Of a DNA stretch of 64,000 bases, positions 1 to 54,702 are shown in pieces. The DNA comes from a virus (Duplodnaviria; Caudoviricetes). A program made the position numbers and the translations under genes. Below the pieces are notes generated by a model. That model ran no database searches. It was given only the letters and a program-made list of their open reading frames with translations, and was not told the DNA's origin. Location: positions 128,001 to 192,000 of the IMG/VR virus record IMGVR_UViG_3300020048_000007. The stretch is one strand, 5' to 3'. Position 1 is the stretch's first letter; each line of letters starts with the position of its first letter.

Positions 1-875
1 TTCATAGTATCAAGCACAAATGCACCAATCCGACCTCTCACACCACCGCCTTTACGATAAGTCACAGTAATAACAGAGCCAATCTTTGGAGAACGACCAG
101 TAATATCATCACCAAACTGAATGGTTATACCCGTCGAACTAACAGTAACCTCAGCGACAGAATCATTCGGACCATATCTCTCAATAGGATCAAAAATCGG
201 GGTGTAGAAAGAAGCGACATTACCATAAACCACCTTGATAGTGATAGGGCTATCAAGAATGTTAGTATCAGCAATGTTTAAAACCTGGTTTGGACCGCCA
301 GCACTAATAACCGAATCGCTAGTCCCAGTAACACCCTCAATACCATAAGCTATCACACCACGTTTACCAGCTGGTATGACTATATCACCAGTAAAATCAA
401 AAGGCGATTTGAAGACCTCATAATTAAGCAGGGTATTATTAGGGCCGTTGATGCTTAACATCAGACCACCCTGAATCTGAATATCAGTGAAAGACGGGTT
501 GTCTATAGATACTTCAACATCAGTTATAGCAGGAGTGGCATTTCTAATCTTCTGGTTTATCAGAGCAAGATGGTTTATAACTGCTTGCTCTGTCCTTGCA
601 GTTGGTAAGGTCGATTCATTTGCAAGCAAATCCGCCCGAAGTGAAAGCTTAGCCACTATAGACGCCACGATTTCAGTTATCATCACAATGCCGTTACTAG
701 CGACAAAGTCATTAAACTGATCAGGAAAATACGTAGCGATATACTCATATATCGCTTTGCGAGAAGTATCGAAATCTAAGCCACTAAAATCGATCTTCCG
801 AAGCGACGCTGGTGTTAATGCAACGCCAAACTGCTCTGGATTCGTGGGAAGATCAAAGTAAGTCATATCAGCCAT
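1..875 (-). CDS. Baseplate wedge protein, T4 gp6-like / baseplate J family (partial, runs off left edge)
   Basis: Not in the ORF track because it has no stop in the window. Hand translation from ATG at 875: MADMTYFDLPTNPEQFGVALTPASLRKIDFSGLDFDTSRKAIYEYIATYFPDQFNDFVASNGIVMITE..., the LDFD / FNDF N-terminus typical of gp6. Follows the gp25-like gene. Confidence 0.75.
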   Translation of the reverse strand, partial: MADMTYFDLPTNPEQFGVALTPASLRKIDFSGLDFDTSRKAIYEYIATYFPDQFNDFVASNGIVMITEIVASIVAKLSLRADLLANESTLPTARTEQAVINHLALINQKIRNATPAITDVEVSIDNPSFTDIQIQGGLMLSINGPNNTLLNYEVFKSPFDFTGDIVIPAGKRGVIAYGIEGVTGTSDSVISAGGPNQVLNIADTNILDSPITIKVVYGNVASFYTPIFDPIERYGPNDSVAEVTVSSTGITIQFGDDITGRSPKIGSVITVTYRKGGGVRGRIGAFVLDTM

Positions 876-37071: not shown

Positions 37072-38277
37072 TTATACGCTATAAAAATCTTTAAAATGAC
37101 GATAGGCACGCCATTTCTTCCCGATAGAAACCTTCACCGGGAAAATATATTCCTCCTCAAGCACCCCATCAAACGGTCTCAACATAATATTACAGACCTG
37201 CCTAATGGTACTATTTATCTCAGCCTTATCTGGAGGAGAAGCAACCACAATTGAGTCATGAATGTCACATACGATCCTTGAGCCCATCTTCTCCCATATC
37301 TTCCTAATAGCTATATGCATCGCATGAGCCACAGATCCTTGCATAACACCATTGAACGACGACAACCGATTCTTCTCATCTGTAACAGTGAACTTTCTTC
37401 CAAGAACGGTGCTCATAGAATCCCTAGCAGAAAGACGCATGATCCAATCACCAAGATCAGGATAAGCTTTATCGAAAACAATGCTGTTGTAATCCAAAGA
37501 ATTGATACATCGCAAAAGAATTAGCTTACATTCATCACGAGAAAAAGTCTGATCCAATTCTTTCTGCTTACTAGCATCATTAAGAATAGACGCGAGCTTG
37601 GTGTACGGGTCAGAATCGATGAAGGCAGATGTTAAAGCTTTATCATTAGACAACATAGAAGCCACCCTAATATCAGCACAAATCCAGTCGAAATGAATCA
37701 GTACATCATTCTCCGAGCCATAGATAGTAGTCACATGATCCTTAGTGGAGAGACCCTGGATATTGAATTCAAGGCTTTTGCTCCTGCCAGTATGTGTTCT
37801 CTGACTCCATATAGGCTGGATATGGGTATAATTATACAGCAACCCGCTATTCTCTAAGTCCGCGTATACTATCGAGGAATTAGCTAGATATTTCTGGTAA
37901 ACATTGACTTTATGTTTAGCCATTTCTTCGAATATCTCTTCGGTATACCTTTCATCAGATCTAACACAATCATCACTGTCTTTCCTGGCCATATGAAAAT
38001 CGAAAACATTATATTCGCGATAGTCTATCGGTAAATCCAGTACGGTGATTAGATCTCTAAAATCTTGGCAAACTATCTCGAAATTCTTGTCATTTAATTT
38101 TAGGAAACACTCTCTAGCTTTGAGTGTTTCCTTCTTAATTTGCTTGATAGTTTTTAGTGAGCCTTCTCTATAAAGATCGAATTTATATGTCTTGCCATCT
38201 ATGAGGAATGATATAAATCTCGGCAGTTTCTTGTTTTTATCTCTATTGAAGATAACTGCTATATATGCTCTTCGCAC
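37072..38277 (-). CDS. polA: Compact family A DNA polymerase domain (PolA-like)
   Basis: RTHTGRSKS, motif A HFDWICADIRVA, motif B RDECK, NGVMQGSVA, motif C IHDSIVV. Confidence 0.75.
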   Translation of the reverse strand: MRRAYIAVIFNRDKNKKLPRFISFLIDGKTYKFDLYREGSLKTIKQIKKETLKARECFLKLNDKNFEIVCQDFRDLITVLDLPIDYREYNVFDFHMARKDSDDCVRSDERYTEEIFEEMAKHKVNVYQKYLANSSIVYADLENSGLLYNYTHIQPIWSQRTHTGRSKSLEFNIQGLSTKDHVTTIYGSENDVLIHFDWICADIRVASMLSNDKALTSAFIDSDPYTKLASILNDASKQKELDQTFSRDECKLILLRCINSLDYNSIVFDKAYPDLGDWIMRLSARDSMSTVLGRKFTVTDEKNRLSSFNGVMQGSVAHAMHIAIRKIWEKMGSRIVCDIHDSIVVASPPDKAEINSTIRQVCNIMLRPFDGVLEEEYIFPVKVSIGKKWRAYRHFKDFYSV

Positions 38278-43809: not shown

Positions 43810-44211
43810 ATGAAAACGCGATTCATCGTTATACCCGTCAACCTAGGCATCAATATTGATGATATTATAAGTACAGATCTAACTGATCTGACAACAGAAT
43901 CGAGATCCGAATTAGATAAAGCACTCAACATAGCAAAAGCAGTACAAAGCGTCAAAATAGAAAAAACCAAACAAAAAGAAGAAAAAACCACCAAGCTACA
44001 AAAAAACATAATAGCCCTATACGAAGCAATTAAAAACGCAAACACAACAGGCGTATCATCAAAAGACATAAAAACAATACTAAACGACGAATCAGCAAAC
44101 CTAAGCACACTGACACCAAAGCTACGGACATACCTGAAAGAACAAGACCCTGAATATGAATTAGAAAAAGTAACAAGAGCAGGAACAGTATACTATCGCT
44201 TCTCTAAATAG
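43810..44211 (+). CDS. Hypothetical protein, possible C-terminal winged helix
   Basis: Lys-rich; GVSSKDIKTIL...LSTLTPKLRTYL...RAGTVYYRF resembles wHTH. Confidence 0.55.
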   Translation: MKTRFIVIPVNLGINIDDIISTDLTDLTTESRSELDKALNIAKAVQSVKIEKTKQKEEKTTKLQKNIIALYEAIKNANTTGVSSKDIKTILNDESANLSTLTPKLRTYLKEQDPEYELEKVTRAGTVYYRFSK

Positions 44212-45133
44212 GCTTTTTCTCGACAAACCCCCGCTGAGCATACTTAATTAGCCTCAAAACGCAACTGCTAACATCCATGCAGTGATCCCACTGGGCATAA
44301 CTTCCAACGCAATGGATACCTAATTTTTCGACGATATCGAGAATAGGCATTTCACCCAACACAAGGTAATCCTTAATGCTCGTACCATCCAAAATGTCAA
44401 AGTCCTTCAAAAAAGACATAAAATACTGACCTGGATAAGGAATTTCCTCATTAAAATAAAACAAATACCTATTTTTCGCAATATTAGAAACCTTAAAAAA
44501 TGAAAACATCTTATCGACCACCATCACCTGATTACTACCCTCAAAATCCAAGTGCTCAGTATAAACATGCATAAAATGAACAGGTTTAGCCTTAAGATCA
44601 TGAGAAACGCCACAAAGATCAAAAAGAACATTCAATGGAATAGTGCTTACAATGTTCTCATAGTCCACCCTTTTGCCTCCCTCAAAAACTAAAGTCTTAT
44701 CCTTAATAGCTGTTAGCCTCCCCAGCTCAGAGCCCTTTGAAATATCAGTGGTTTCTAGGTACTTTGAATACAGCTCATTTACTCTTAAATCGTAGACCTC
44801 AAGTTCCATATTGTGTTTCATATAAGCACTAATATGAGAAGGCGTGTTTACTCCAAACAAATTACTAGCCCAATCCATACAGATTCCATCATCATGATTC
44901 TGGTACAGTAATCCTCTGATGGAATAAGCCCTGTTATATTGAAACTTCTGAACTTTACCGAATTTATCAGACACAAAGCAATCTACTTCTTTATTGGCCA
45001 CCATGAAGTTGTCGTCGAGACTTGGGTTAAAGGAAAAAAACCTACTCTTATAAAACGGAATTATTGTCCAATCTGGCCCTAAAATATCTCTTGCAAGCAT
45101 CGCTACGACACCAGATCCTAATATGTATTTCAT
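44204..45133 (-). CDS. FAD-dependent oxidoreductase-like protein (divergent)
   Basis: N-terminal YILGSGVVAMLA Rossmann start, DYENIVSTIPL, C-terminal VGSYAQWDHCMD, as in UDP-galactopyranose mutase / amine oxidase-like folds. Confidence 0.55.
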   Translation of the reverse strand: MKYILGSGVVAMLARDILGPDWTIIPFYKSRFFSFNPSLDDNFMVANKEVDCFVSDKFGKVQKFQYNRAYSIRGLLYQNHDDGICMDWASNLFGVNTPSHISAYMKHNMELEVYDLRVNELYSKYLETTDISKGSELGRLTAIKDKTLVFEGGKRVDYENIVSTIPLNVLFDLCGVSHDLKAKPVHFMHVYTEHLDFEGSNQVMVVDKMFSFFKVSNIAKNRYLFYFNEEIPYPGQYFMSFLKDFDILDGTSIKDYLVLGEMPILDIVEKLGIHCVGSYAQWDHCMDVSSCVLRLIKYAQRGFVEKKPI

Positions 45134-45582
45134 TCTTCCACCAAATCCTCATCAAAATTGATACCAAGGTCACTCTTCGGAAGCTTCTTACCAGAACCAT
45201 AATCTATGAAGTCACCGCCAAACACAGCCTTCCTCTTATCAACATCAACCGGCTTATTGAAGCCAACCAAAGGATTAAAAGCATGATCTATGAGATCAGA
45301 CAAGCTCATAATATTGGCTCTAATAGGATCTATAAAAGGAAAAACTGGTTTCGGTCTCAGACTCTCACACTGCTCACAGACACATTCACCAGACATTCTA
45401 TACTCAATACCAGCACCGCACGCAGGACAAGTCAACAGTACCTTAGTAGGTCTTACAAGATCACCAAACGCATCTAAAGACTTTCGGTGATCCACTATGT
45501 TACCACTAAACTCAAAAGGTCTTGCATAGACCTTTACTCCATAGATATCGACTTCGACTAAATCGTACGGATTATAACTCAC
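45130..45582 (-). CDS. Zinc-ribbon hypothetical protein
   Basis: CPAC...CEQC. Confidence 0.6.
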   Translation of the reverse strand: MSYNPYDLVEVDIYGVKVYARPFEFSGNIVDHRKSLDAFGDLVRPTKVLLTCPACGAGIEYRMSGECVCEQCESLRPKPVFPFIDPIRANIMSLSDLIDHAFNPLVGFNKPVDVDKRKAVFGGDFIDYGSGKKLPKSDLGINFDEDLVEE

Positions 45583-46121
45583 GATGAACTAGACCAGGAT
45601 GATTCAACAGGTACGTTTTGTTTAGAAACCCAGTAATGATATCTATCTTGACAAATACTTATTTCAAGGTCTCTAGAAGATGCTTCGACTGAAGCATTCT
45701 TCCTAAAATCAACTCCACCACAAACGCACACATTCTTAGAAATGCTATTTCTCCCACATTTTAAGCACACATATGGCTGTTTAGACATATTTACAGAAAC
45801 TTTCCCGAAGACAGCATAATAATAAGCATCTGACAACACAAGATCTACACCTGTTAAACCACAAAAATGCTTCACAATGCCAGTCCTATTGTTCATACTA
45901 GAAGTATAAACATTAACGACTTCATCAGAAACACTTTCATAGCATGCGGCACAAAAGTCAAATGACTTCTCCGGTTTTTGCTGCAGTATATCTGTTATAG
46001 GTGGTCTCCTACCGCCATACTGCTTTACCTTCATCACATTCACACTATAATAATCAAAGTCTTCCTTATTCGTCGCTTTGCATATATCACATATTATTCC
46101 GGTTTGATCTTGCGTTTGCAT
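45579..46121 (-). CDS. Cys-rich hypothetical protein
   Basis: CDIC, CAAC, CLKC...CVCG motifs. Confidence 0.6.
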   Translation of the reverse strand: MQTQDQTGIICDICKATNKEDFDYYSVNVMKVKQYGGRRPPITDILQQKPEKSFDFCAACYESVSDEVVNVYTSSMNNRTGIVKHFCGLTGVDLVLSDAYYYAVFGKVSVNMSKQPYVCLKCGRNSISKNVCVCGGVDFRKNASVEASSRDLEISICQDRYHYWVSKQNVPVESSWSSSS

Positions 46122-48813
46122 CGGACTTTCTCTTAAGTTTCGATATCTTCTGACGTCTACTTACACAAAACATACCCCTAGCATCGAAATCAACAGGAAT
46201 ATGAATTCCAATGCCAGGTTCAAAACACGCCTCATCCTGCATCATTAATTCCTTCTCCCATACAAACACCATACAATCAGCAATCCCATCAGTACCAAAA
46301 ATCTTACCATAAGGTTTACCTGTCTTAGTCATATCCCTAACGAATTTGCTTGTATACAAATGTAAAAAATTGTTTCCTTCCTCCTTAGAAGCGCGATCCT
46401 TAGAAGCAGCTATGGTTCCATCACCGGTTATCTTATAAGAACCAAGCGGAGAATCAAGGTAATACCCAATATACTCCTGCTGGAAAGCTAATCTTTCTTC
46501 TAAAGTAAAATCGTCTAAAGTCACTTTATTAATATTTTCTAAAGTTACTTCGATTTTCGGCATCCATTTCGTTATCGCTGGTGGGATCTTATTACGTTTA
46601 GGATAGGCGCGGCGATACTCTTGCTCTTGGCGATCACGCTCCTTGGCAATCGTCTTCTCATCCCATCCTTCTAGAGCCATAAGGTCATTGTGAAGTTGCA
46701 CTTTCATCTCTCTAATGTCTTTATTCACAGAGCAGTAAAAATACTGATAATACTTCCATAAAGCACGGCTGTTCTGATGTCCAGGCAATTGCTGGAAAGC
46801 ATTTAACTTGATAAATCTTTCCAAAACAGGTTTACTCCTCCGGCCAGAATCTTCACCACCGACAAATTCATCAAGCGATTTATAATCACCCTTTCCAGTA
46901 AAAACCAAAGCGGCTGAATCACCAATGCCTTTAATACCAATCATGCCCTGATTAATACTGTCGCCAGATACCTTGAATCCACGCTGAAGATTATTTATAT
47001 CAATAGTACCGAAGTGAACACCCTCGGCTGGAATGGCTGGTTTATGGCTCCCACTGTATGTGATTACCGACGGCTTCCATTCTTCAGACCTAGCCATGCC
47101 CATATATCTAGGCAACTTCTTGGCGTGGCAATCACTCATAATAGCAGCCCAAAACTCAGGTGCAAAGTGCGCCTTCAACCACAAGCATCTCATAGTCAGC
47201 AGGCAGTAACTCACACTATGTGATTTATTAAATGCATACCTGCCGAATGTTTCCATCTTCTCCCACCAGTACGCAGCAGCTTCCTCACCAATAGACTTAC
47301 CAGCACCTTCAAGCCATTTGGTCTTAATCGGCTTTAATTTGTGTGTCCACTTCTTAGCCACGGCCTTCCGAGCATCCTGTGATTCAGGACTAGTGAAAGC
47401 AGCAAGCCTCTGCCATAGTGCCTGTAACTGTTCTTGGTAAACAATAACCCCATAGGTGGACTCAAGAACAGATAAAAACTCTGGGTGCAACTTCTCTTTC
47501 CATTTATTAAGACTATCATCGCGGTTAGCCATAGCCTCAGGAATTGATTGCATAGGACCTGGGTGGCCCATGGCATTTAAAAGCATTAAGTCTTCGAAAG
47601 ACTTCACACCATGTTCTAAGATCCCTTTGCCATTATCTGTATCAAATTGAAATATGCCATCAGTCTTCTTATCGTTCGCAAGCTTCAAAGCTGCTGGATC
47701 ATCCATGTTTATAAAATGTTTTTCCCCGCTCTGATCGAAATAAAAGCCGATTATCCTTTGCTCTGGATCATTATAATCCATTCCCTCCAGATTATCACCA
47801 AACGAAATCCCGCGATTTTCTTCGATAAACTTGCATGCCTCGAATAGGTACTTCACAGTCTTTAAACCAAGTAGATCCCATTTGACATAACCGAATTTGC
47901 TCAGCTGAGTGGTTCTTCCCTCGGTCCACATGCTTACCCAAAAGCCCTTCTTACCACTTTTCGCCATTGGAACGTTCCCAAACAATGGCCTGTCAGTAAT
48001 AATCAGAGCTCCCGCGTGCATCCCCTGATTCCTAATGCGGCCAACTAGCTGCTTGGCGTAGTCAACGACATTCGGGTGTATACGATATAATTCAGCAAGC
48101 TCTTTTACTTCTGCTAAGAGCTTACCAATGGTCGGGGCCTCAGTATCTGTCTGATTACAAAAAGGGCATATTTTCGCATCATGCACCTTTCCGCAATCTT
48201 GTTCAGCCCCTTCAATGATGATTCTACTTTTACAAACGGAAAACCCGCCTTCTCTCAGATCGTCGACTTCATCAGGCATCTCAGTGGTGAAACGCTCTGC
48301 CTCATATCGTGTCATAACACCAAGTGCCGTAGACACGTCTAAAATCGCACTTCTTAACTTGTAGGTCTGCCAGGTCCCAACAGAGCAAACACTGCCATAA
48401 ACATCATCGACGTTACTCCCATAACGCTGAATCGCATATTCCTTCAAAGGATCTCTAGATTCTGGGATACAATCGATATCGATATCTGGCATGTCAGTAT
48501 CTTTAGTGATATCTTCAGGATAATACCCATACTTGTTCTTGTAACTCATAACACTAGAAGCCGCAATGGAATTAAGCATCGGCGTGGTCCGCTCATAGAA
48601 CGGATCATCATCAGAAACACCCAACAGATACGCTATGAGAAGCCTATTTGGGTTTTTAAGCCCCTTTTGATCAGATTCAGCAACACGTATCCAGTATGCT
48701 TCTGTACCCTGTTTTTCAATCTCTGATATTTCAAACATCAATCTATCAACATACGTGCTGCCTAATGCTTTACCTTTAGGTATTAACGTTTCTTTCATAT
48801 CATTCCAGGTCAT
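46087..48813 (-). CDS. dnaE: DNA polymerase III alpha (DnaE), catalytic C-terminal part
   Basis: DMPDIDIDC (two catalytic Asp), GMHAGALII, VKWDLLGL (third Asp), GIFQF, VIVYQEQL, FGRYAFNKSHS, IKGIG HhH, OB-fold end; no PHP domain. Confidence 0.92.
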   Translation of the reverse strand: MTWNDMKETLIPKGKALGSTYVDRLMFEISEIEKQGTEAYWIRVAESDQKGLKNPNRLLIAYLLGVSDDDPFYERTTPMLNSIAASSVMSYKNKYGYYPEDITKDTDMPDIDIDCIPESRDPLKEYAIQRYGSNVDDVYGSVCSVGTWQTYKLRSAILDVSTALGVMTRYEAERFTTEMPDEVDDLREGGFSVCKSRIIIEGAEQDCGKVHDAKICPFCNQTDTEAPTIGKLLAEVKELAELYRIHPNVVDYAKQLVGRIRNQGMHAGALIITDRPLFGNVPMAKSGKKGFWVSMWTEGRTTQLSKFGYVKWDLLGLKTVKYLFEACKFIEENRGISFGDNLEGMDYNDPEQRIIGFYFDQSGEKHFINMDDPAALKLANDKKTDGIFQFDTDNGKGILEHGVKSFEDLMLLNAMGHPGPMQSIPEAMANRDDSLNKWKEKLHPEFLSVLESTYGVIVYQEQLQALWQRLAAFTSPESQDARKAVAKKWTHKLKPIKTKWLEGAGKSIGEEAAAYWWEKMETFGRYAFNKSHSVSYCLLTMRCLWLKAHFAPEFWAAIMSDCHAKKLPRYMGMARSEEWKPSVITYSGSHKPAIPAEGVHFGTIDINNLQRGFKVSGDSINQGMIGIKGIGDSAALVFTGKGDYKSLDEFVGGEDSGRRSKPVLERFIKLNAFQQLPGHQNSRALWKYYQYFYCSVNKDIREMKVQLHNDLMALEGWDEKTIAKERDRQEQEYRRAYPKRNKIPPAITKWMPKIEVTLENINKVTLDDFTLEERLAFQQEYIGYYLDSPLGSYKITGDGTIAASKDRASKEEGNNFLHLYTSKFVRDMTKTGKPYGKIFGTDGIADCMVFVWEKELMMQDEACFEPGIGIHIPVDFDARGMFCVSRRQKISKLKRKSDANARSNRNNM

Positions 48814-49469
48814 ACATCTTCCTTTATCTGGATCTGATGGGCTGATTTGATGTGGTTTGTTAGGCCATAGCTGCTAATTGTCTTCTTACCACAGATGTGG
48901 CAAGCATATACAGTACCGTCAGTAGAAATCGGCTTAGCTTTGCAAGTTTTAGCATGCAAAGTATAACCAGACATGGAAGACATAATTTTTCCACAATTAG
49001 CACATTTCATGCCATCATTGCCTATAGCACACCCTATCATTTTCGATAATGGCTTTTCTCTATCCATTTCATAACAAAGATCTGGTGGTCGCCATTCTTT
49101 ATTCGATGGCCTGCCTGTAACCCAGCTCTCATGAATAGGAAGGCTCATTGAGTCTAAGTTAGCATCACTATCAGCGTATAGTATAGCATCAACTGCCCTT
49201 ATTTTAACGTAGTATAATGGTCTTCCGTCTTTCACACAAGCTTTTAAGACGTCTTTGTACGCTTTATCATCTAACTCTATAATTTTCGATATCGTGGTTT
49301 TGTGAAGTATCAAGCCTCTATATTCTTCATATTTAAAATCGCTTTTTGCCCAGTATGGCCTTAATGATAGTAAAATGAGTATCTCTTTTAGACTCTTTTC
49401 TTCTCCATTAACATAGGTCTTATTGTTTTCTTCAGTGATTTTATAACCTTTGGGGTTCAAGTCTCGCAT
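48810..49469 (-). CDS. Protein with two C-terminal C2HC/C2H2 zinc fingers
   Basis: CANC-x12-H-x3-C and CHIC-x12-H-x4-H. Confidence 0.7.
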   Translation of the reverse strand: MRDLNPKGYKITEENNKTYVNGEEKSLKEILILLSLRPYWAKSDFKYEEYRGLILHKTTISKIIELDDKAYKDVLKACVKDGRPLYYVKIRAVDAILYADSDANLDSMSLPIHESWVTGRPSNKEWRPPDLCYEMDREKPLSKMIGCAIGNDGMKCANCGKIMSSMSGYTLHAKTCKAKPISTDGTVYACHICGKKTISSYGLTNHIKSAHQIQIKEDV

Positions 49470-49797
49470 TGTATTTGTATTCTTGGTTTAGAGCAGCTGT
49501 TTTTGCCATATCTAACATTGAAATACAATCAGCACCCCACGTTATATCTGTTAAATCGATTCTTAGGTCGTTAGGATTATCAACGTTATATCTAATAGTA
49601 ATATATGCATCTTTGTGCTTTAAAGCAGATTTAGCTAATTTAAAGCTCTTATAAATGTAATCTCCAGAGCCTAAACCTGATGTTATTACACATTCATTTT
49701 GGCTCTGGAGATGTTTTAGTCTGATAGCACAGCCATAAGAAGGTATCTTATCTTCGATGCATGCTATGCAGATCTCGATATCATATAAATGAGCCAT
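49441..49797 (-). CDS. Hypothetical protein (possible degenerate RNase H-like fold)
   Basis: 118 aa; secondary-structure pattern only, no clear catalytic set. Confidence 0.5.
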   Translation of the reverse strand: MAHLYDIEICIACIEDKIPSYGCAIRLKHLQSQNECVITSGLGSGDYIYKSFKLAKSALKHKDAYITIRYNVDNPNDLRIDLTDITWGADCISMLDMAKTAALNQEYKYNARLEPQRL

Positions 49798-50305
49798 CGA
49801 CAGCCACTAGCTTAGGATATTGGGAGCCCGTCTCAACCGCGAATGCATCGAGAGTACGAGCCACAGCATTTAAGACATGGTTTTTTGCAGCTATCTTATC
49901 GCTAGAACTACGCCACTTACCTATTTCGACAAGAACATTATCAGCTAGTTGCTTAACATTCGAAGGAAATTCTTTTCCTTCTGATTGATAATTGCTGACA
50001 TAGCTATCGATGATTCCGGTCACGTATAATGCAGCTGATTCTGTGATATTGTAAGACAAATGGCTTATTTCTCTGTCTTTACGCTCTTGATTTGTATCTG
50101 TGATAAAGTCAATTAGCTTGAGCAAATAAGCACAAAGCTGATCACTAACGCCATTCATTATCACTATGTGCGTTCTGACAGCGTGCTTAAGCTCTTCGAC
50201 CTGAGCATTGCGCCTGTCGCTATAATCTTCTTCAATGCCAGTTCTTATATCCGCTGGTGCCAAAGCCGTTGGCATGCTAACAGACTGCATTCTTGGATCG
50301 TTCAT
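49781..50305 (-). CDS. Hypothetical helical protein
   Basis: 174 aa; RBS AGGAGG. Confidence 0.6.
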   Translation of the reverse strand: MNDPRMQSVSMPTALAPADIRTGIEEDYSDRRNAQVEELKHAVRTHIVIMNGVSDQLCAYLLKLIDFITDTNQERKDREISHLSYNITESAALYVTGIIDSYVSNYQSEGKEFPSNVKQLADNVLVEIGKWRSSSDKIAAKNHVLNAVARTLDAFAVETGSQYPKLVAVDGSFI

Positions 50306-50344
50306 AGGTACCTCCTGCCATATTTACTTGCTACCTGCAAAAAA

Positions 50345-51739
50345 TCACTTAAATTCGGGTAGTTTTACATTCAGCAAATAGCCACCACGACTCGGACTCA
50401 AGAATCTGTCGAATGACAAACCCCATTTAAGCGGGTCAATGCTAGAGATTCCAAGCAGATAGCAAACCAAACTCCCTGGAGCACTACCACGAGGATAAAA
50501 CGGAAATCCTAGAGACCTCCCATGATCTATTAGGTCATATGTTATTAAAAAATAACTGCTAAAACCCTTCTCGATGAACCGAGTAAGTTCTATTCTGGCT
50601 TGCTCTGCATACGTCACAAGCTTGCCATCAACCGGGAACTTAGTCTTCACCTTATCTAAACCAAGTTCTTTGAGTCTCTTCGTCGCAATACGAATCAATT
50701 CTTGGTCTGACTGATCGACAGACGGAATCTTGGGCGTGGAGTCTACATTTAATTTAGAACATCTATTAGCGATTTCTAGAGTATTATCACAAGCTTTCTG
50801 GAAAAACCCATCATCGATACCTTTGCTATAGCCATTATCAGTAAATCTCTCATGTAATTCCTCTCGGGTCTTCATGTACTGCTCATCACTATTAACGTGA
50901 AAAAGATCAGGGCTATCAACGGTTGTCTCCTGTGAAATAGCCATCATGATCTTCTGTAATATAAAATCCTTGCGGTGCATATAATGACAATCATTCGTGA
51001 TCACCGACGGTACCTTGTAATGATCAGCAAGTTCAACCTGCCACCGAAAGACCTTCTCATCATTCTCGACCCCAGGCATTTGTAACTCCATAAAATAATC
51101 TTCGCCAAATGCGTCTTTGAATTTTTTTATATAAGCTGCGGCATCCCTAAAACACTCCTTAGAGCTTCTCTCCCAGACCACATTGTCCTCTTTATCCTTA
51201 ATACTTCTGAATCTAAGCTCATGACTAACTGGTCCGTTTAAGCATCCAGAAAGAATGATTAATCCCTCTTTGTACTCACAAAGCTTCTCAAACCATATCC
51301 TGTTATACTGTGTAGTACCAAGTCCGAACAATCCTGTATCATAAGCCTGAGTAGTGAGCTTTATAAGGTTCTCGACACCAGTCTGATTCTTACATACGAC
51401 AGTTAAATGCCTGTTCCGGAACATCCTTGCAGCGAGCTCTTGATTTTCTTTGCGCCATTCTGGAGATCGATATTTAACACCATCCGCGTGCATTTTCTGT
51501 CTTAGCGGCTCATAATCATTATAATATATCTCACAACCGACTATACTCTTTAGACCGTATTGTTGAAACGCGATGTACATGTCAGGGACACTACCCATAT
51601 GACCATGCTCCGTAGCAGCCATAGCCGGATATCCAAGATTATGACACCTCTCGGCATATTGCTGCGGAGACGATACCCCATCAAGAAAGCTGAAAATAGT
51701 ATGAGCATGGAGATGGACAAAAGGAGCGTGCGATTGCAT
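50345..51739 (-). CDS. dnaE: DNA polymerase III alpha (DnaE), N-terminal PHP part
   Basis: FVHLHAH, ATEHG, GCEIY, RHLT, SGCLNG, ELQ, TNDCHY (intact PHP metal ligands); ends RGSAPGSLVCYLLGISSIDPLKWGLSFDRFLSPSR then stops. Confidence 0.92.
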   Translation of the reverse strand: MQSHAPFVHLHAHTIFSFLDGVSSPQQYAERCHNLGYPAMAATEHGHMGSVPDMYIAFQQYGLKSIVGCEIYYNDYEPLRQKMHADGVKYRSPEWRKENQELAARMFRNRHLTVVCKNQTGVENLIKLTTQAYDTGLFGLGTTQYNRIWFEKLCEYKEGLIILSGCLNGPVSHELRFRSIKDKEDNVVWERSSKECFRDAAAYIKKFKDAFGEDYFMELQMPGVENDEKVFRWQVELADHYKVPSVITNDCHYMHRKDFILQKIMMAISQETTVDSPDLFHVNSDEQYMKTREELHERFTDNGYSKGIDDGFFQKACDNTLEIANRCSKLNVDSTPKIPSVDQSDQELIRIATKRLKELGLDKVKTKFPVDGKLVTYAEQARIELTRFIEKGFSSYFLITYDLIDHGRSLGFPFYPRGSAPGSLVCYLLGISSIDPLKWGLSFDRFLSPSRGGYLLNVKLPEFK

Positions 51740-51819
51740 AGAAATGATCGTATCCCTAGTATCAATATTTTATGACTATCAGAAAAACACAGGTACGCAT
51801 AGATGAAATTCACCTATAT

Positions 51820-53520
51820 TCATTTTTTATCCCCGTCCTGTAAGGCATCCATAAACCATGATGGAAACAGCCTACCACTTCTCTTAATGAACCCGACAAA
51901 GCTCCCATCAATGATATAAGTGTCAGCGTAATCCTCAGGACCACGAATAGATCTACCGTACGATTGAACCAGCTTTAAAGCTGTTAGCCAAGGAATATAA
52001 GCCGGATCAAGCTGGTTACGCCTGTTAAGCTGCTTATTATCAAAAAAATTCGGAAAAGGCACCTTGCTAATGACCTGAAACCGACTCAAATCACCATTCA
52101 AGTCGACACCCTCATGCATAGCAGGAGCAACAAGAATACTGCCAGGTCTGCGAGCATGCAGCTCCAGTAACTCCTTCTTGTCAGGAAACATCCTCTGAGT
52201 GATAAATCTGTGCCTACTTTGGCAACCATCGTAGAGAGCATCAAGAATAGCAAAATTGTGTGTATGAATCATACCACGTTCATCCGGATATCGATCACAT
52301 ATCTCATCAACAACATCTATCACCTTAGGCATCCACTCATTCATGCGGCTCTTACCACCTGTAAGATTACCACAATCCTTGAAATAGATCGGACGATTCT
52401 CTACAGGGAACCTATTCTTCATCCTGTATGACGCAATCTGATCCTTTTCAAGACCCAAAGCATTACAAAAGACATTGATATCAAGAATTGTAGCGCTCAT
52501 AATAAGCACCTTGTCAGCGAACCTGAAAAGCATCTTATCAGCGTAATCCCGAATGAAAACAGGCTTAAATTCGACCGAAAATTCCTTGCTCCTCTCAGCA
52601 TACGTAGTCTGACATACCCACTCAGAATCTTCGAATGTCTCCAGGAACTGAATGACCCGTTTAACAAGCTTACTCAAATCGTCCTCAGTCTTGTGATCCT
52701 CTCTGCGTTTAGCATCTTCGATCGCAAGAGCAATGACTTCAGCGATACGTTCTTCTTTACACCATTCAAAATAATCTCGCGGATCTTCATACTTCGGCAA
52801 AATAACACCGAAATCCTTAAAAGTATCACTCGCAAACACAAACGACACAACGTCGAGCAAAACCTGCTCAATATTATGACCCTCATCGATAATCAACAGA
52901 TCTCTCGGCATATCAAACCTACGAGTCATCATAGTCTGATAAATGAAGCTATTGAAATTCATACAAACGACAGGACCATTAACAGACTTAAAGACCTGCT
53001 CGTAATAAGCACATGCGCTGTACACCTTACCAGCCGGAAGATGATTCAAGTCGCCCTTCGGGACACCCGGGATCTGATCCCTCAAGAAACACCCAGAGCA
53101 TTTGTGACCGTCTTTGCGTCCTACCTTCGATTTGCAATACCCAGCTGCACAATCCGGCTTCTCATCAATCTTCTCATCGAGCCTATCAAGCGGGATAATT
53201 TTTGCGAGCTTATCCCTGTTTCTCTCATAATAGTCGCAGTGATACGCATTCCTACCTTTGAGTTCTACAACCTTATCGCCAAAATCATTCATGAACTGAT
53301 CTTGAAGAATCTTCGTGATTGTGAGATAGTACGAGCTTTCAGCCATATTAGCCATCGTCATACCGATAGCTGATTTACCCGAGCCGGTAGGGCATTCGAG
53401 AATCACGACCTTCTTACCCTCATTGAACTGCTTACAAGCAAATTCAATGGCCTTCTTTTGGCCATCACGAAATTCAGCCTTGGGGAAACAGTCGTCAATT
53501 CTGTCTAGATCATATTGCAT
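51820..53520 (-). CDS. SF2 helicase, DinG/XPD (helicase C2) family
   Basis: Q motif FRDGQ, Walker A CPTGSGKS, IIDEGH, MSAT, HEGVD, QSYGRSIR; Cys cluster (HCDYY, CAAGYC, CSGC, CAYY) consistent with an Fe-S domain. Confidence 0.85.
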   Translation of the reverse strand: MQYDLDRIDDCFPKAEFRDGQKKAIEFACKQFNEGKKVVILECPTGSGKSAIGMTMANMAESSYYLTITKILQDQFMNDFGDKVVELKGRNAYHCDYYERNRDKLAKIIPLDRLDEKIDEKPDCAAGYCKSKVGRKDGHKCSGCFLRDQIPGVPKGDLNHLPAGKVYSACAYYEQVFKSVNGPVVCMNFNSFIYQTMMTRRFDMPRDLLIIDEGHNIEQVLLDVVSFVFASDTFKDFGVILPKYEDPRDYFEWCKEERIAEVIALAIEDAKRREDHKTEDDLSKLVKRVIQFLETFEDSEWVCQTTYAERSKEFSVEFKPVFIRDYADKMLFRFADKVLIMSATILDINVFCNALGLEKDQIASYRMKNRFPVENRPIYFKDCGNLTGGKSRMNEWMPKVIDVVDEICDRYPDERGMIHTHNFAILDALYDGCQSRHRFITQRMFPDKKELLELHARRPGSILVAPAMHEGVDLNGDLSRFQVISKVPFPNFFDNKQLNRRNQLDPAYIPWLTALKLVQSYGRSIRGPEDYADTYIIDGSFVGFIKRSGRLFPSWFMDALQDGDKK

Positions 53521-53613
53521 TATTGCGCTCTCTTTCTAATTAAACAATACACGATTTATAACGATATTACTTCAGTATTTGAGCATTGAAACCAGACCCC
53601 ATAGAAAGAACAT

Positions 53614-54702
53614 ATGAGCCAAGTACTAATCACAGCAGACATCCACTTTGGCGTACCCGGCAGACTTGACGATATCTTATACTCCTGCAGAGTAATGAGA
53701 GAATATTGTCGACTAGCGAACATCGACACAATACTCGTGCTGGGTGACCTATATCACGACCGCAGATACCTTGAAATAGACGTACTATCAGCGTCATATA
53801 AATTCTTCGAAGAATGCTACTCAAAATATAACCAACGCTGGGTGATATTCCCAGGCAATCATGATATGTTCCTCAGACATAGCTGGAGAATTAACAGCCT
53901 AACGCCGTTAGCACAAGTCACCACATTAATAGAGGACGTATGCAAAATAGAAATAGAACGACAAACATTCTGGATTTTACCATTCATATCATACGAAAAA
54001 TCATACATGACAGTGCTAAACAAAATAAATGAACAAGCAGATGAGAACGACATCCTGCTAACTCACATCGGTGTAAACGGCGCTACCATGAATACATGCT
54101 TCATGTTAAAAGACTGGGGCCTCGTCAATTTTAGTGATACGAAATTCAAGAGAGTCTACACAGGGCACTTCCACAGTAAACAATCAATTGGTGATAGAGT
54201 ATTCTATCCAGGCAGCCCAATACCATTTAAACACGACGAAGGCAATGTTCCTCACGGTTTCTACGTCTATAATCTAGAAACAAGCGAACACAAATTCATA
54301 AACATCTGGAAGGCCGGAAGACAATTTTTCCCTAACGAAACGCCACCACCACAATTCTGCAGCATACTGGATACAGACCTTGACAATCTAACACCAGAAG
54401 ATGTGAAACACAACAAAGTCAGAATAGCACTATCCGCTGACACCCCAGCAGATAAAAAAAGAGAAATAAAAGAAAGACTCGAAGCATTAGGGGCTGAAAA
54501 TGTAAGCTGGATGAACCTAAAAGAAGCAGCCCCAGACATACAAGAAATAAATCAAAATATCGAAAAATCAGACTTATTCGAACTGTTCATAGCCAATAAC
54601 GAAAAAAGCACAAAAGATCTAAACATAGACCTACTAAGAAGACTAAACGCTGAGATAATCCGCGAAGGAGATGAGCAGTATAGTCTCTCGTCAGATAATT
54701 GA
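53614..54702 (+). CDS. Mre11/SbcD/gp47-like metallophosphoesterase nuclease
   Basis: ADIHFG, LGDLYH, GNHD, TH, GHFH, YPGSP. Confidence 0.88.
   Translation: MSQVLITADIHFGVPGRLDDILYSCRVMREYCRLANIDTILVLGDLYHDRRYLEIDVLSASYKFFEECYSKYNQRWVIFPGNHDMFLRHSWRINSLTPLAQVTTLIEDVCKIEIERQTFWILPFISYEKSYMTVLNKINEQADENDILLTHIGVNGATMNTCFMLKDWGLVNFSDTKFKRVYTGHFHSKQSIGDRVFYPGSPIPFKHDEGNVPHGFYVYNLETSEHKFINIWKAGRQFFPNETPPPQFCSILDTDLDNLTPEDVKHNKVRIALSADTPADKKREIKERLEALGAENVSWMNLKEAAPDIQEINQNIEKSDLFELFIANNEKSTKDLNIDLLRRLNAEIIREGDEQYSLSSDN

Follow-up and report, generated by a model that had tools for sequence, protein, structure and literature searches.

The family C DNA polymerase DnaE encoded in a 64,000-nucleotide stretch of viral DNA (bases 128001-192000 of the IMG/VR virus record IMGVR_UViG_3300020048_000007, which spans 231,672 bp and is estimated to be 64% complete; hereafter the window) is divided between two genes, and we propose, at a probability of about 0.65, that their products form a non-covalent two-subunit polymerase with a composite active site. 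The two halves are the outermost of five open reading frames (ORFs) that all run in the same direction on the minus strand, as do all features of the locus given below. The gene of the N-subunit (50345-51739; 464 amino acids; PF02811 and positions 3-98 of PF07733) is followed by gene a (49781-50305; 174 amino acids), gene b (49441-49797; 118 amino acids) and gene c (48810-49469; 219 amino acids), and then by the gene of the C-subunit (46087-48813; 908 amino acids; PF07733, PF17657 and PF14579), the distance between the two DnaE ORFs being ~1.5 kb. Gene a begins 39 nt after the N-half stop and is preceded by a GGAGG ribosome-binding site, after which each gene overlaps the next (a and b by 17 nt, b and c by 29 nt, c and the C-half by 4 nt, with the stop of gene c and the start of the C-half sharing the sequence ATGA). 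A preliminary description of this DNA had already listed these ORFs, their motifs and the three genes in between; its coordinates were exact, and all of it was confirmed.

The N-half contains a PHP domain (amino acids 9-220, PF02811, E 2.2e-34) and the beginning of the palm (amino acids 356-451, matching positions 3-98 of the PF07733 profile), and it aligns with Mycobacterium tuberculosis DnaE1 (residues 8-417 aligned, E 1.5e-50) continuously until the motif ..FLSPSR at amino acid 451. Nine residues of the PHP region (amino acids 9-252; 50984-51715), namely H11, H13, D20, H45, E70, H111, C166, D250 and H252, align with what we take to be the nine metal ligands of DnaE1 and are invariant in 85 N-halves. 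This alignment and the 85 homologues bear out the earlier statement that the 464-amino-acid half has an intact PHP ligand set and ends just before PDxDxD. The palm N-terminal subdomain (amino acids 356-451; 50387-50674) carries the motifs R417-G418-S419 (50483-50491) and F443-D-R445-F, with R417, G418, S419, G422, S423, F443, R445 and F446 present in 85/85 N-halves. It is followed by a conserved, clade-specific C-terminal tail of the form GGY(M/L)LNVxMP.. (amino acids 452-464; 50348-50386) that is absent from single-chain DnaE, in which G452, G453 and L456 are invariant and Y454 and N457 are conserved at >96%. Full-length DnaEs align with the N-half only until amino acid 451, while split-type N-halves reach amino acids 456-462 and end there.

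The C-half takes up the fold where the N-half leaves it. Its alignment to solved DnaEs starts at amino acid 106 (..MPDIDID; sequence E 1e-31 to 1e-40), and phrog_405, a full-length phage DnaE profile, is cut exactly between positions 439 and 440. The catalytic strand D-M-P-D-I-D-I-D-C (amino acids 107-115; 48469-48495), with D110 and D112, aligns with residues 459-467 of Thermus alpha, and D105, D107, P109, D110, D112 and D114 occur in 85/85 C-halves. The third catalytic Asp lies in the motif K311-W-D313-L-L-G-L (47863-47883), which aligns with LKMDFLGL of Thermus alpha; K311, W312, D313, L315, G316 and L317 are invariant among C-halves (85/85 for K311 and D313). Pfam places positions 8-260 of PF07733 at amino acids 3-316, fingers at amino acids 367-505 (47299-47715; PF17657, E 1.7e-27) and a helix-hairpin-helix (HhH) DNA-binding domain at amino acids 599-680 (46774-47019; PF14579, E 2.3e-6). 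The AlphaFold2 (AF2) model of this half has a predicted local distance difference test score (pLDDT) of 87.2, and its best structural matches are DnaE1 (5lew; Z 22.1, root-mean-square deviation (rmsd) 4.6, 487 aligned), Escherichia coli alpha (2hnh; Z 21.1, rmsd 4.5, 491 aligned) and Thermus alpha (4iqj). Taken over both ORFs, the hallmarks of a family C enzyme of the DnaE type are present (PHP, Pol-beta-like palm with GS motif and three Asp, fingers, HhH and OB), with the catalytic core of that type, normally a single polypeptide, spread over two.

The residues of the polymerase site are thus distributed as complementary sets: RGS and the FDRF arginine occur only in N-halves, and the three catalytic Asp together with Lys311 only in C-halves. 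In single-chain DnaE the first set presumably holds the triphosphate of the incoming deoxynucleoside triphosphate (dNTP; R362-G363-S364 and R390 in E. coli). A complex of the N-half with residues 1-530 of the C-half was predicted in three runs and with three controls, using our own alignments, so that the calibration counts are only approximate: the mark for the interaction prediction score from aligned errors (ipSAE) was reached by 58/80 solved complexes and by 2/110 mismatched pairs. The pair scored 0.87 (runs 0.86-0.88) and the best control 0.02; the runs share at least 94% of their contacts, with partner pLDDT of at least 90. On the N side the predicted interface comprises residues 406-420, which include RGS, and 444-464, the entire tail; on the C side it comprises residues 27-67, 83-98 (both within the second palm copy described below), 101-116 (the Asp strand) and 303-315. 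Confident predicted pairs join N403/406 to C123-127, in the helix after the Asp strand, and N455/456 to C31 (E31) and C102 (I102). The multimer modelling that the preliminary description had recommended therefore predicts binding, with the RGS region facing the Asp strand, and supports the view that the halves bind each other. When the AF2 model of the C-half alone was superposed on DnaEs (VIA-align), 8/11 superpositions began at residue 103-109 and 3/11 at 31-83; in most of them, therefore, the confidently modelled copy appears to lie outside the canonical palm position. We favour a composite site because the residue sets lie on two chains, because of the predicted interface and because of these superposition starts.

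As we picture it, a Pol-beta-like nucleotidyltransferase centre would be assembled non-covalently from two polypeptides of one operon. The N-subunit would contribute the PHP 3'-5' exonuclease, the first palm subdomain (a strand-loop-helix with R417-G418-S419 and the FDRF arginine, holding the dNTP triphosphate) and the clade-specific tail. The C-subunit would contribute D110, D112, D313 and Lys311, the thumb with its zinc ribbon, the fingers, HhH and OB. Its first 105 residues would be a degenerate paralogue of the N-subunit palm piece from which the dNTP-binding residues have been lost, most likely serving as a docking or clasp module against the tail and palm piece of the N-subunit.

This degenerate second copy of the palm N-terminal subdomain (amino acids 1-105 of the C-half; 48499-48813) is recognizable from its family consensus, Y..RL.FE..EIEKQGA..YW..(K)F.SNPN.L.LPWLLG....DP, in which a conserved NPN replaces the strand-RGS loop (N54 in 82/85 sequences, P55 in 76/85, L58 in 85/85), and from the AF2 model, in which it keeps the helix order (19-35, 38-46, 59-64 and 85-95; pLDDT 83-93). 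Direct comparison of the two segments gives weak statistics (a 13-residue BLASTP match, E 0.001; hhalign of the C-half 1-104 profile against the N-half C-terminal profile, E 0.12), a profile of the copy returned no DnaE from the PDB, and the window's own copy taken alone has no Pfam match. Third-party comparisons support the homology. The N-half and the C-half each align to one and the same 240-nt stretch of a contiguous phage DnaE. In 49 loci of a sister group, a single ORF of ~1090 amino acids is matched by N-half residues 7-454, and the C-half, from residue 14-20 onwards, matches the same ORF in 25/49. Amino acids 59-135 of the C-half are collinear with the RGS-helix-to-DxD stretch of a contiguous 559-amino-acid mini-DnaE of the same genome (E 0.007). 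The copy segment alone matches PF07733, and essentially no other family, in 10/70 close relatives, and it matches PF07733 positions 6-89 in 6/7 deep-branch relatives (E 7.5e-4 to 0.04), where the likeness is plain to the eye (NGLVLPWLLGIT.IDPI against GSLVCYLLGISSIDPL). These matches support the second copy as real, if very diverged. The earlier account, according to which the 908-amino-acid half opens with a degenerate, RGS-less palm copy and continues with PDIDID and KWDLLGL, is upheld on the strength of such third-party alignments and PF07733 matches, its alternative of a C-half N-terminus without palm homology having found no favour. In one sub-lineage (L027:8084-10942; L033:4864-7582, identical to L039:8611-11329; L035:8286-11806) the copy is a separate ORF of 132-153 amino acids with ~50 extra, beta-rich-looking residues at its C-terminus, and the catalytic ORF begins just before the Asp strand, giving a three-piece polymerase. 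The copy is therefore an autonomous module, and the same joint has been cut a second time.

Outside the window, the same genome encodes a contiguous mini polymerase of 559 amino acids (L007:487-2166, minus strand, equivalent to G000:C1 ~85913-87592) that is limited to palm and fingers. RGS and PDIDLD are intact in it, a PHP domain is missing, and it starts at the same palm segment as the C-half; five complete relatives do not have this gene.

The preliminary description had offered two readings, an active site completed in trans and a separable PHP subunit. Invariant complementary residues and predicted binding speak for the former, and the latter we keep as a rival. It would make the C-subunit self-sufficient, with its own degenerate palm piece in the canonical position, and the N-subunit a detachable PHP proofreader, analogous to epsilon and docked via a vestigial palm fragment. 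The copy does keep the full set of N-terminal palm helices, arranged canonically with respect to the DxD strand, it is an autonomous small gene in the sub-lineage just described, and PHP-less DnaE-like polymerases beginning at the same segment exist, one of them the 559-residue enzyme. This last enzyme, however, keeps RGS, whereas all C-halves examined are without RGS and the FxRF arginine and all N-halves keep both, even at ~33% identity. Inteins in relatives occupy the RG|S site of the N-half, the predicted interface sets N 406-420 against the Asp strand, and the C-half model superposes on DnaEs, in most cases, only from residue 103-109 onwards. We consider a self-sufficient C-subunit unlikely on balance.

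Several considerations count against the composite site that we prefer. The high complex score may partly reflect the prediction model's memory, because the halves of the split gene resemble solved single-chain DnaE structures, and the proximity of RGS to the catalytic Asp is inferred from lists of interface residues. The invariance of RGS is only mildly discriminating, because the N-half is highly conserved throughout (mean column identity 68%). Homology statistics for the window's own copy are weak when the segment is tested alone, and the copy in the C-half, whose docking role is a proposal, is itself strongly conserved. A polymerase core without the N-subunit is possible in principle, because PHP-less DnaE-like enzymes exist, one in the same genome, though this one keeps its own RGS. 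The whole case for a two-chain enzyme is one of prediction and conservation.

Could the halves instead be rejoined covalently, by an atypical split intein made of the 13-residue tail and the first 105 residues of the C-half, by RNA splicing or by translational bypass? Cutting out tail residues 452-464 and C-half residues 1-105 would yield ..SPSR-TDMPDIDID with canonical spacing, and natural split inteins are known in the same gene family. The residue after ..SPSR, which would be position 1 of the intein N-fragment, is nevertheless not a Cys, Ser or Ala; an invariant Gly-Gly stands there, with 13 amino acids remaining. The would-be +1 residue (amino acid 106) is Pro, Gln or Ala in 53/85 sequences and Ser or Thr in 32/85, unlike that of a split-intein C-fragment. 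The 105-residue segment is confidently all-helical in AF2 and not a Hint fold, and Pfam detected no Hint or intein domain flanking the break. On these points the preliminary description, which had seen no intein residues at the break, agrees with our results. Rfam (evalue mode) found no group I or II intron and no other family in 44000-54000, and the 1.5 kb between the halves codes for three conserved proteins with their own ribosome-binding sites. We therefore regard covalent rejoining as very improbable. Three contigs from a lake metatranscriptome (151-251 nt, depth ~2) fall in the 5' end of the C-half and in gene a and contain no joints, a coverage too thin for a verdict on transcription or splicing, and no RNA runs covering the whole stretch were listed. 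Promoter and terminator counts were no different from those of shuffled sequence, with no enrichment of terminator-like sites.

The absence of an intein at the break is meaningful because true split inteins occur elsewhere in the same gene in relatives. Four loci (L021:5875-8774, L029:5947-8738, L030:5956-8744 and L036:5923-9899) bear a split intein precisely at the RG|S site of their N-half, in a 'fractured gene' layout with ~0.85 kb between the two ORFs: the first ends in ..PRG followed by Cys and ~100 amino acids, and the second has ~60 amino acids ending in ..SSN followed by SAGGSLVCYLLG, with the terminal Asn and a Ser at +1. The metagenomic protein P0332 has a contiguous intein at the same RG|S site. 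Inteins home to functionally constrained sites.

The divided arrangement is widespread. Homologues of the C-half form >120 clusters (877-989 amino acids, 42-94% identity), none with PHP, and those of the N-half form 120 clusters (444-502 amino acids). A survey of related phage genomes for the same break point, as recommended in the preliminary description, found the identical split layout in 31/31 IMG/VR loci (N-half identity 41-68%, contigs up to 408 kb) and in five Logan loci, with 734-2858 nt between the halves. In a PHP-palm tree the core split clade is monophyletic (support 1.0), and next to it, with weak support, stands a group of DnaEs that are contiguous and ~1090 amino acids long. Relatives are all split down to ~41% N-half identity, and the nearest contiguous DnaEs are ~30% identical, a distribution that differs from the recent, lineage-restricted splits of the homing-endonuclease, gene-in-pieces type. 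Megablast against phage records was empty and tblastn gave only DnaEs of <=26% identity for the C-half, so that these searches reached no cultured relative. Judged by these comparisons, the split is old, clade-wide and selected, and not a broken gene, in uncultured freshwater jumbo phages.

The same data dispose of a decaying pseudogene or an assembly artefact, for which nothing speaks beyond the unusual layout. Across hundreds of independent assemblies, each half is intact and shows strong purifying selection. Over 45900-51900 the window is collinear with a 21.6-kb contig that comes from an independent study and differs by 66 substitutions and zero indels, and near-identical DNA is present in runs of ~18 freshwater or lake studies. 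We count this explanation as already refuted by the conservation data, its remaining probability being negligible. Some contigs of run X5 lack 52 and 104 nt at the two borders of the N-half gene, or have other sequence in their place (window 50329-50382 and 51721-51826), differences that hit the tail/stop region and the upstream intergenic region and represent strain-level variation at gene borders.

A second, distant group of stand-alone N-halves (metagenomic proteins P0274, P0289, P0335 and P0332, and locus L091; ~33% identity) ends in ..RFLSPSRGG plus 8-10 amino acids and groups with other full-length DnaEs on the tree. The only contig found for it, of 3.8 kb, is without a C-half. This group implies that the split goes back much further, or else that fission took place independently at the same joint.

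As to how the split arose, the overlap and the complementary losses (RGS kept in the N-half, DxD in the C-half) fit a duplication followed by reciprocal degeneration. The preliminary description had argued for duplication and subfunctionalisation, and the overlap and losses fit that course; they are, however, indistinguishable from the outcome of a truncated second dnaE joining a PHP-less polymerase, or of an insertion with partial duplication. A foreign a-b(-c) cassette may have entered a contiguous dnaE with partial duplication of its target, or a truncated second dnaE may have joined a PHP-less polymerase, the present function being unchanged. In favour of such an origin, genes a, b and c are confined to the split clade, and none lies within 6 kb of a contiguous sister-group dnaE; PHP-less DnaE enzymes beginning exactly at the same segment exist, and polymerase and NrdA genes of T4-type phages have been split by inserted DNA (PMC2988022). 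It is harder to reconcile with Pfam and PHROG searches that detected no nuclease, HNH, GIY-YIG or LAGLIDADG domain in a, b or c and with an overlap of ~100 amino acids, which far exceeds any known target duplication, and the copy is too diverged for placement on a tree. We hold insertion or joining to be a real but doubtful possibility.

The genes between the halves were grouped into families by all-against-all comparison of the ORFs found there. Family a has 20 members and 6 distant ones, family b has 23 and 3, and family c, the zinc-finger proteins, has 15; families a and b occur in nearly every split locus and family c in a subset, and none of the three was found within 6 kb of the sister group's contiguous dnaE. 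Gene a, conserved between both halves, encodes an orphan protein predicted by AF2 to be a confident bundle of five helices (pLDDT 85.7), for which no relatives were found in Pfam, PHROG, the PDB (best E 0.59) or AFDB clusters. Gene b lies at the position of the widespread family b. It is related only to the copy in locus L003 (33% identity) and shows no link to the main family in hhalign (E 0.47), and on this pattern it may be a replacement of a family b member. Gene c encodes an unknown N-terminal domain and two C2H2-type zinc fingers (PF00096 at amino acids 188-211, E 1.5e-6). Pfam searches with 24 members gave nothing consistent that would point to the function of gene a, Pfam and PHROGs detected no HNH, GIY-YIG, LAGLIDADG or other nuclease domain in genes a, b or c, and an Atlas search was uninformative for a and b and returned only zinc-finger clusters for c. 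In L036 and L037 (e.g. L037:8382-9473) a single open frame of ~360 codons, measured stop to stop, stands in the gap instead of a and b and could be a fused or different middle gene.

Judged by their synteny, the middle genes are conserved partners of the polymerase and not an incidental insert, and we infer an accessory or assembly role for a and b (and c). Families a and b, orphans locked in synteny with a polymerase, may represent new replisome components.

The thumb region of the C-half contains a Cys4 zinc-ribbon insert (48157-48234) whose four Cys (C194, C207, C216 and C219) are invariant in 85 sequences; the AF2 model shows beta hairpins at 192-206, and the ribbon is not present in the solved DnaEs aligned. 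At the C-terminus an OB fold (amino acids ~796-898; 46120-46428) resembles those of RPA, Teb1 and PriB (VIA-align Z 9-11, rmsd 2.3-5.5, 78-101 aligned). Insertion hot spots occur in C-halves at amino acids 424 and 530 (L022, L023, L024, L030, L036 and L037). At C-half codon ~530 (window 47223, motif FNK|SHS) a 1.9-kb insertion is present in a lake strain, on a 55-kb contig of run X4, and some C-halves of 1290-1385 amino acids bear intein and LAGLIDADG domains.

The surroundings of the locus are those of a replication and recombination region, with genes for an XPD-like helicase, an Mre11-type phosphoesterase, an ATP-dependent ligase, RecA, DnaB, a flap endonuclease, a UvsY-like protein and a PolA-like fragment. 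The split enzyme is the likely replicase, because family B polymerases are absent from five complete genomes of the clade (341-408 kb, four of them with terminal repeats), in which PF07733 matches no genes other than the two halves. No beta-clamp, DnaQ or PolB was found in the record that holds the window, which is 64% complete, and the gp45 model used matched 0/14 control genomes. A 401-amino-acid ORF at window 37072-38277 (minus strand), adjoining the flap endonuclease, the UvsY-like gene, DnaB and RecA, matches only the last ~110 positions of a family A polymerase profile (E 8e-13) and could be a truncated or very divergent PolA.

The genome also carries a PurZ-type gene (L103:1477-2577), ~21.6 kb past the window end, whose P-loop reads G-S-T-G-K-G (archaeal PurA, G-D-E-G-K-G) and whose PDB matches are archaeal PurA (9e-43) and the PurZ structures 7ODX and 6FM1 (~2e-40). 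A PF00709 gene is present in 12/12 split-DnaE records examined (this genome, L005 and 10/10 further ones, G001-G010), with the signature Gly-Ser-x-Gly-Lys-Gly in 11/12 (Gly-Asp-Glu-Gly-Lys-Gly in PurA), the motif of the twelfth being unmatched, and in none of 5 records of the contiguous-DnaE sister group. At L005:3486-4628 the PurZ-type gene lies two genes upstream of the N-half. Polymerases named in papers on Z-genome phages are only the PolA-type DpoZ or PrimPol. One might speculate, with low confidence, that a large and hitherto unrecognized clade of ZTGC (2-aminoadenine) jumbo phages has, in the split DnaE and proteins a, b and c, a dedicated replicase of its own, a family C counterpart of DpoZ, in which a separate subunit for the dNTP loop and PHP would be tied to selection of dZTP (the 2-aminoadenine dNTP) or exclusion of adenine. 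The co-occurrence of PurZ and split DnaE is no proof of functional coupling, because the records are mutually related. If the proposal were true, the enzyme may be the first replicase of Z-DNA phages that is neither PolA nor PrimPol, because a lake-abundant clade carries the PurZ-type genes.

Nearly all bacterial chromosomes are replicated by family C polymerases, whose catalytic subunit is treated as a single chain. An evolutionarily stable enzyme that is naturally cut through its nucleotidyltransferase core, without inteins, would make it possible to study how the GS loop works together with the Asp triad. A two-chain DnaE would likewise offer a handle on communication between the PHP proofreader and the polymerase site and on the fission of an essential enzyme, and a polymerase predicted to be both naturally split and self-assembling is a possible engineering scaffold.

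Compared with known systems, the phage enzyme has the same domains in the same order as single-chain DnaEs with an active PHP (M. tuberculosis DnaE1, 5lew/7pu7; Thermus aquaticus Pol III alpha, 2hpi), to which the N-half aligns at E 1e-50 and the C-half at E 1e-31 to 1e-40 (structural Z 21-22, rmsd 4.5-4.6, 487-491 aligned). It differs from them in consisting of two chains broken inside the catalytic fold, between ..FLSPSR and MPDIDID, in having the ~100-residue palm piece twice, and in its N-half tail, thumb Cys4 ribbon and two to three genes between the halves. With the cyanobacterial split DnaE (Ssp/Npu split intein) and the 'fractured genes' of Dassa and colleagues (Dassa et al., 2009, PMC2677866) it shares a dnaE in two pieces, and the N-halves of relatives carry split inteins of the fractured-gene kind. 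Unlike in cyanobacteria, the break lies at a different site and lacks Cys1, a terminal Asn, a nucleophilic +1 residue and a Hint fold, so the product must stay two-chain.

Aeromonas phages 25 and 44RR have a split gp43 whose two parts, 43A and 43B, purify together and show activity, and the NrdA gene of phage Aeh1 is also in pieces (PMC2988022). Here too a phage replication enzyme is cut in a critical region, with non-covalent reassembly, which in our case is predicted. Those splits are recent, lineage-specific, tied to a homing endonuclease or an untranslated spacer and without a duplicated overlap, and gp43 belongs to a different polymerase family; in contrast, the phage DnaE split is clade-wide, old and overlapping, with no endonuclease domain detected. 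The 'split' DnaE of Corynebacterium phage P1201 was considered as a parallel and set aside, as it consists of overlapping ORFs of one gene region and is not comparable, and full-text literature searches for a split DnaE without inteins yielded papers on split inteins only. Among published cases the nearest is that of the group 2.2 jumbo phages, whose minimal Pol III alpha is predicted to be split without inteins into an NTP-binding N protein and a Mg- and template-binding C protein (Iyer et al., 2021, PMC7824862). The break point is of the same kind. The group 2.2 version lacks PHP and the remaining DnaE domains, is encoded by two widely separated genes and stands beside a family B polymerase (PMC7824862), whereas the phage enzyme described here is full-size and encoded in one operon, with conserved middle genes, a duplicated overlap and five complete relatives without PF00136.

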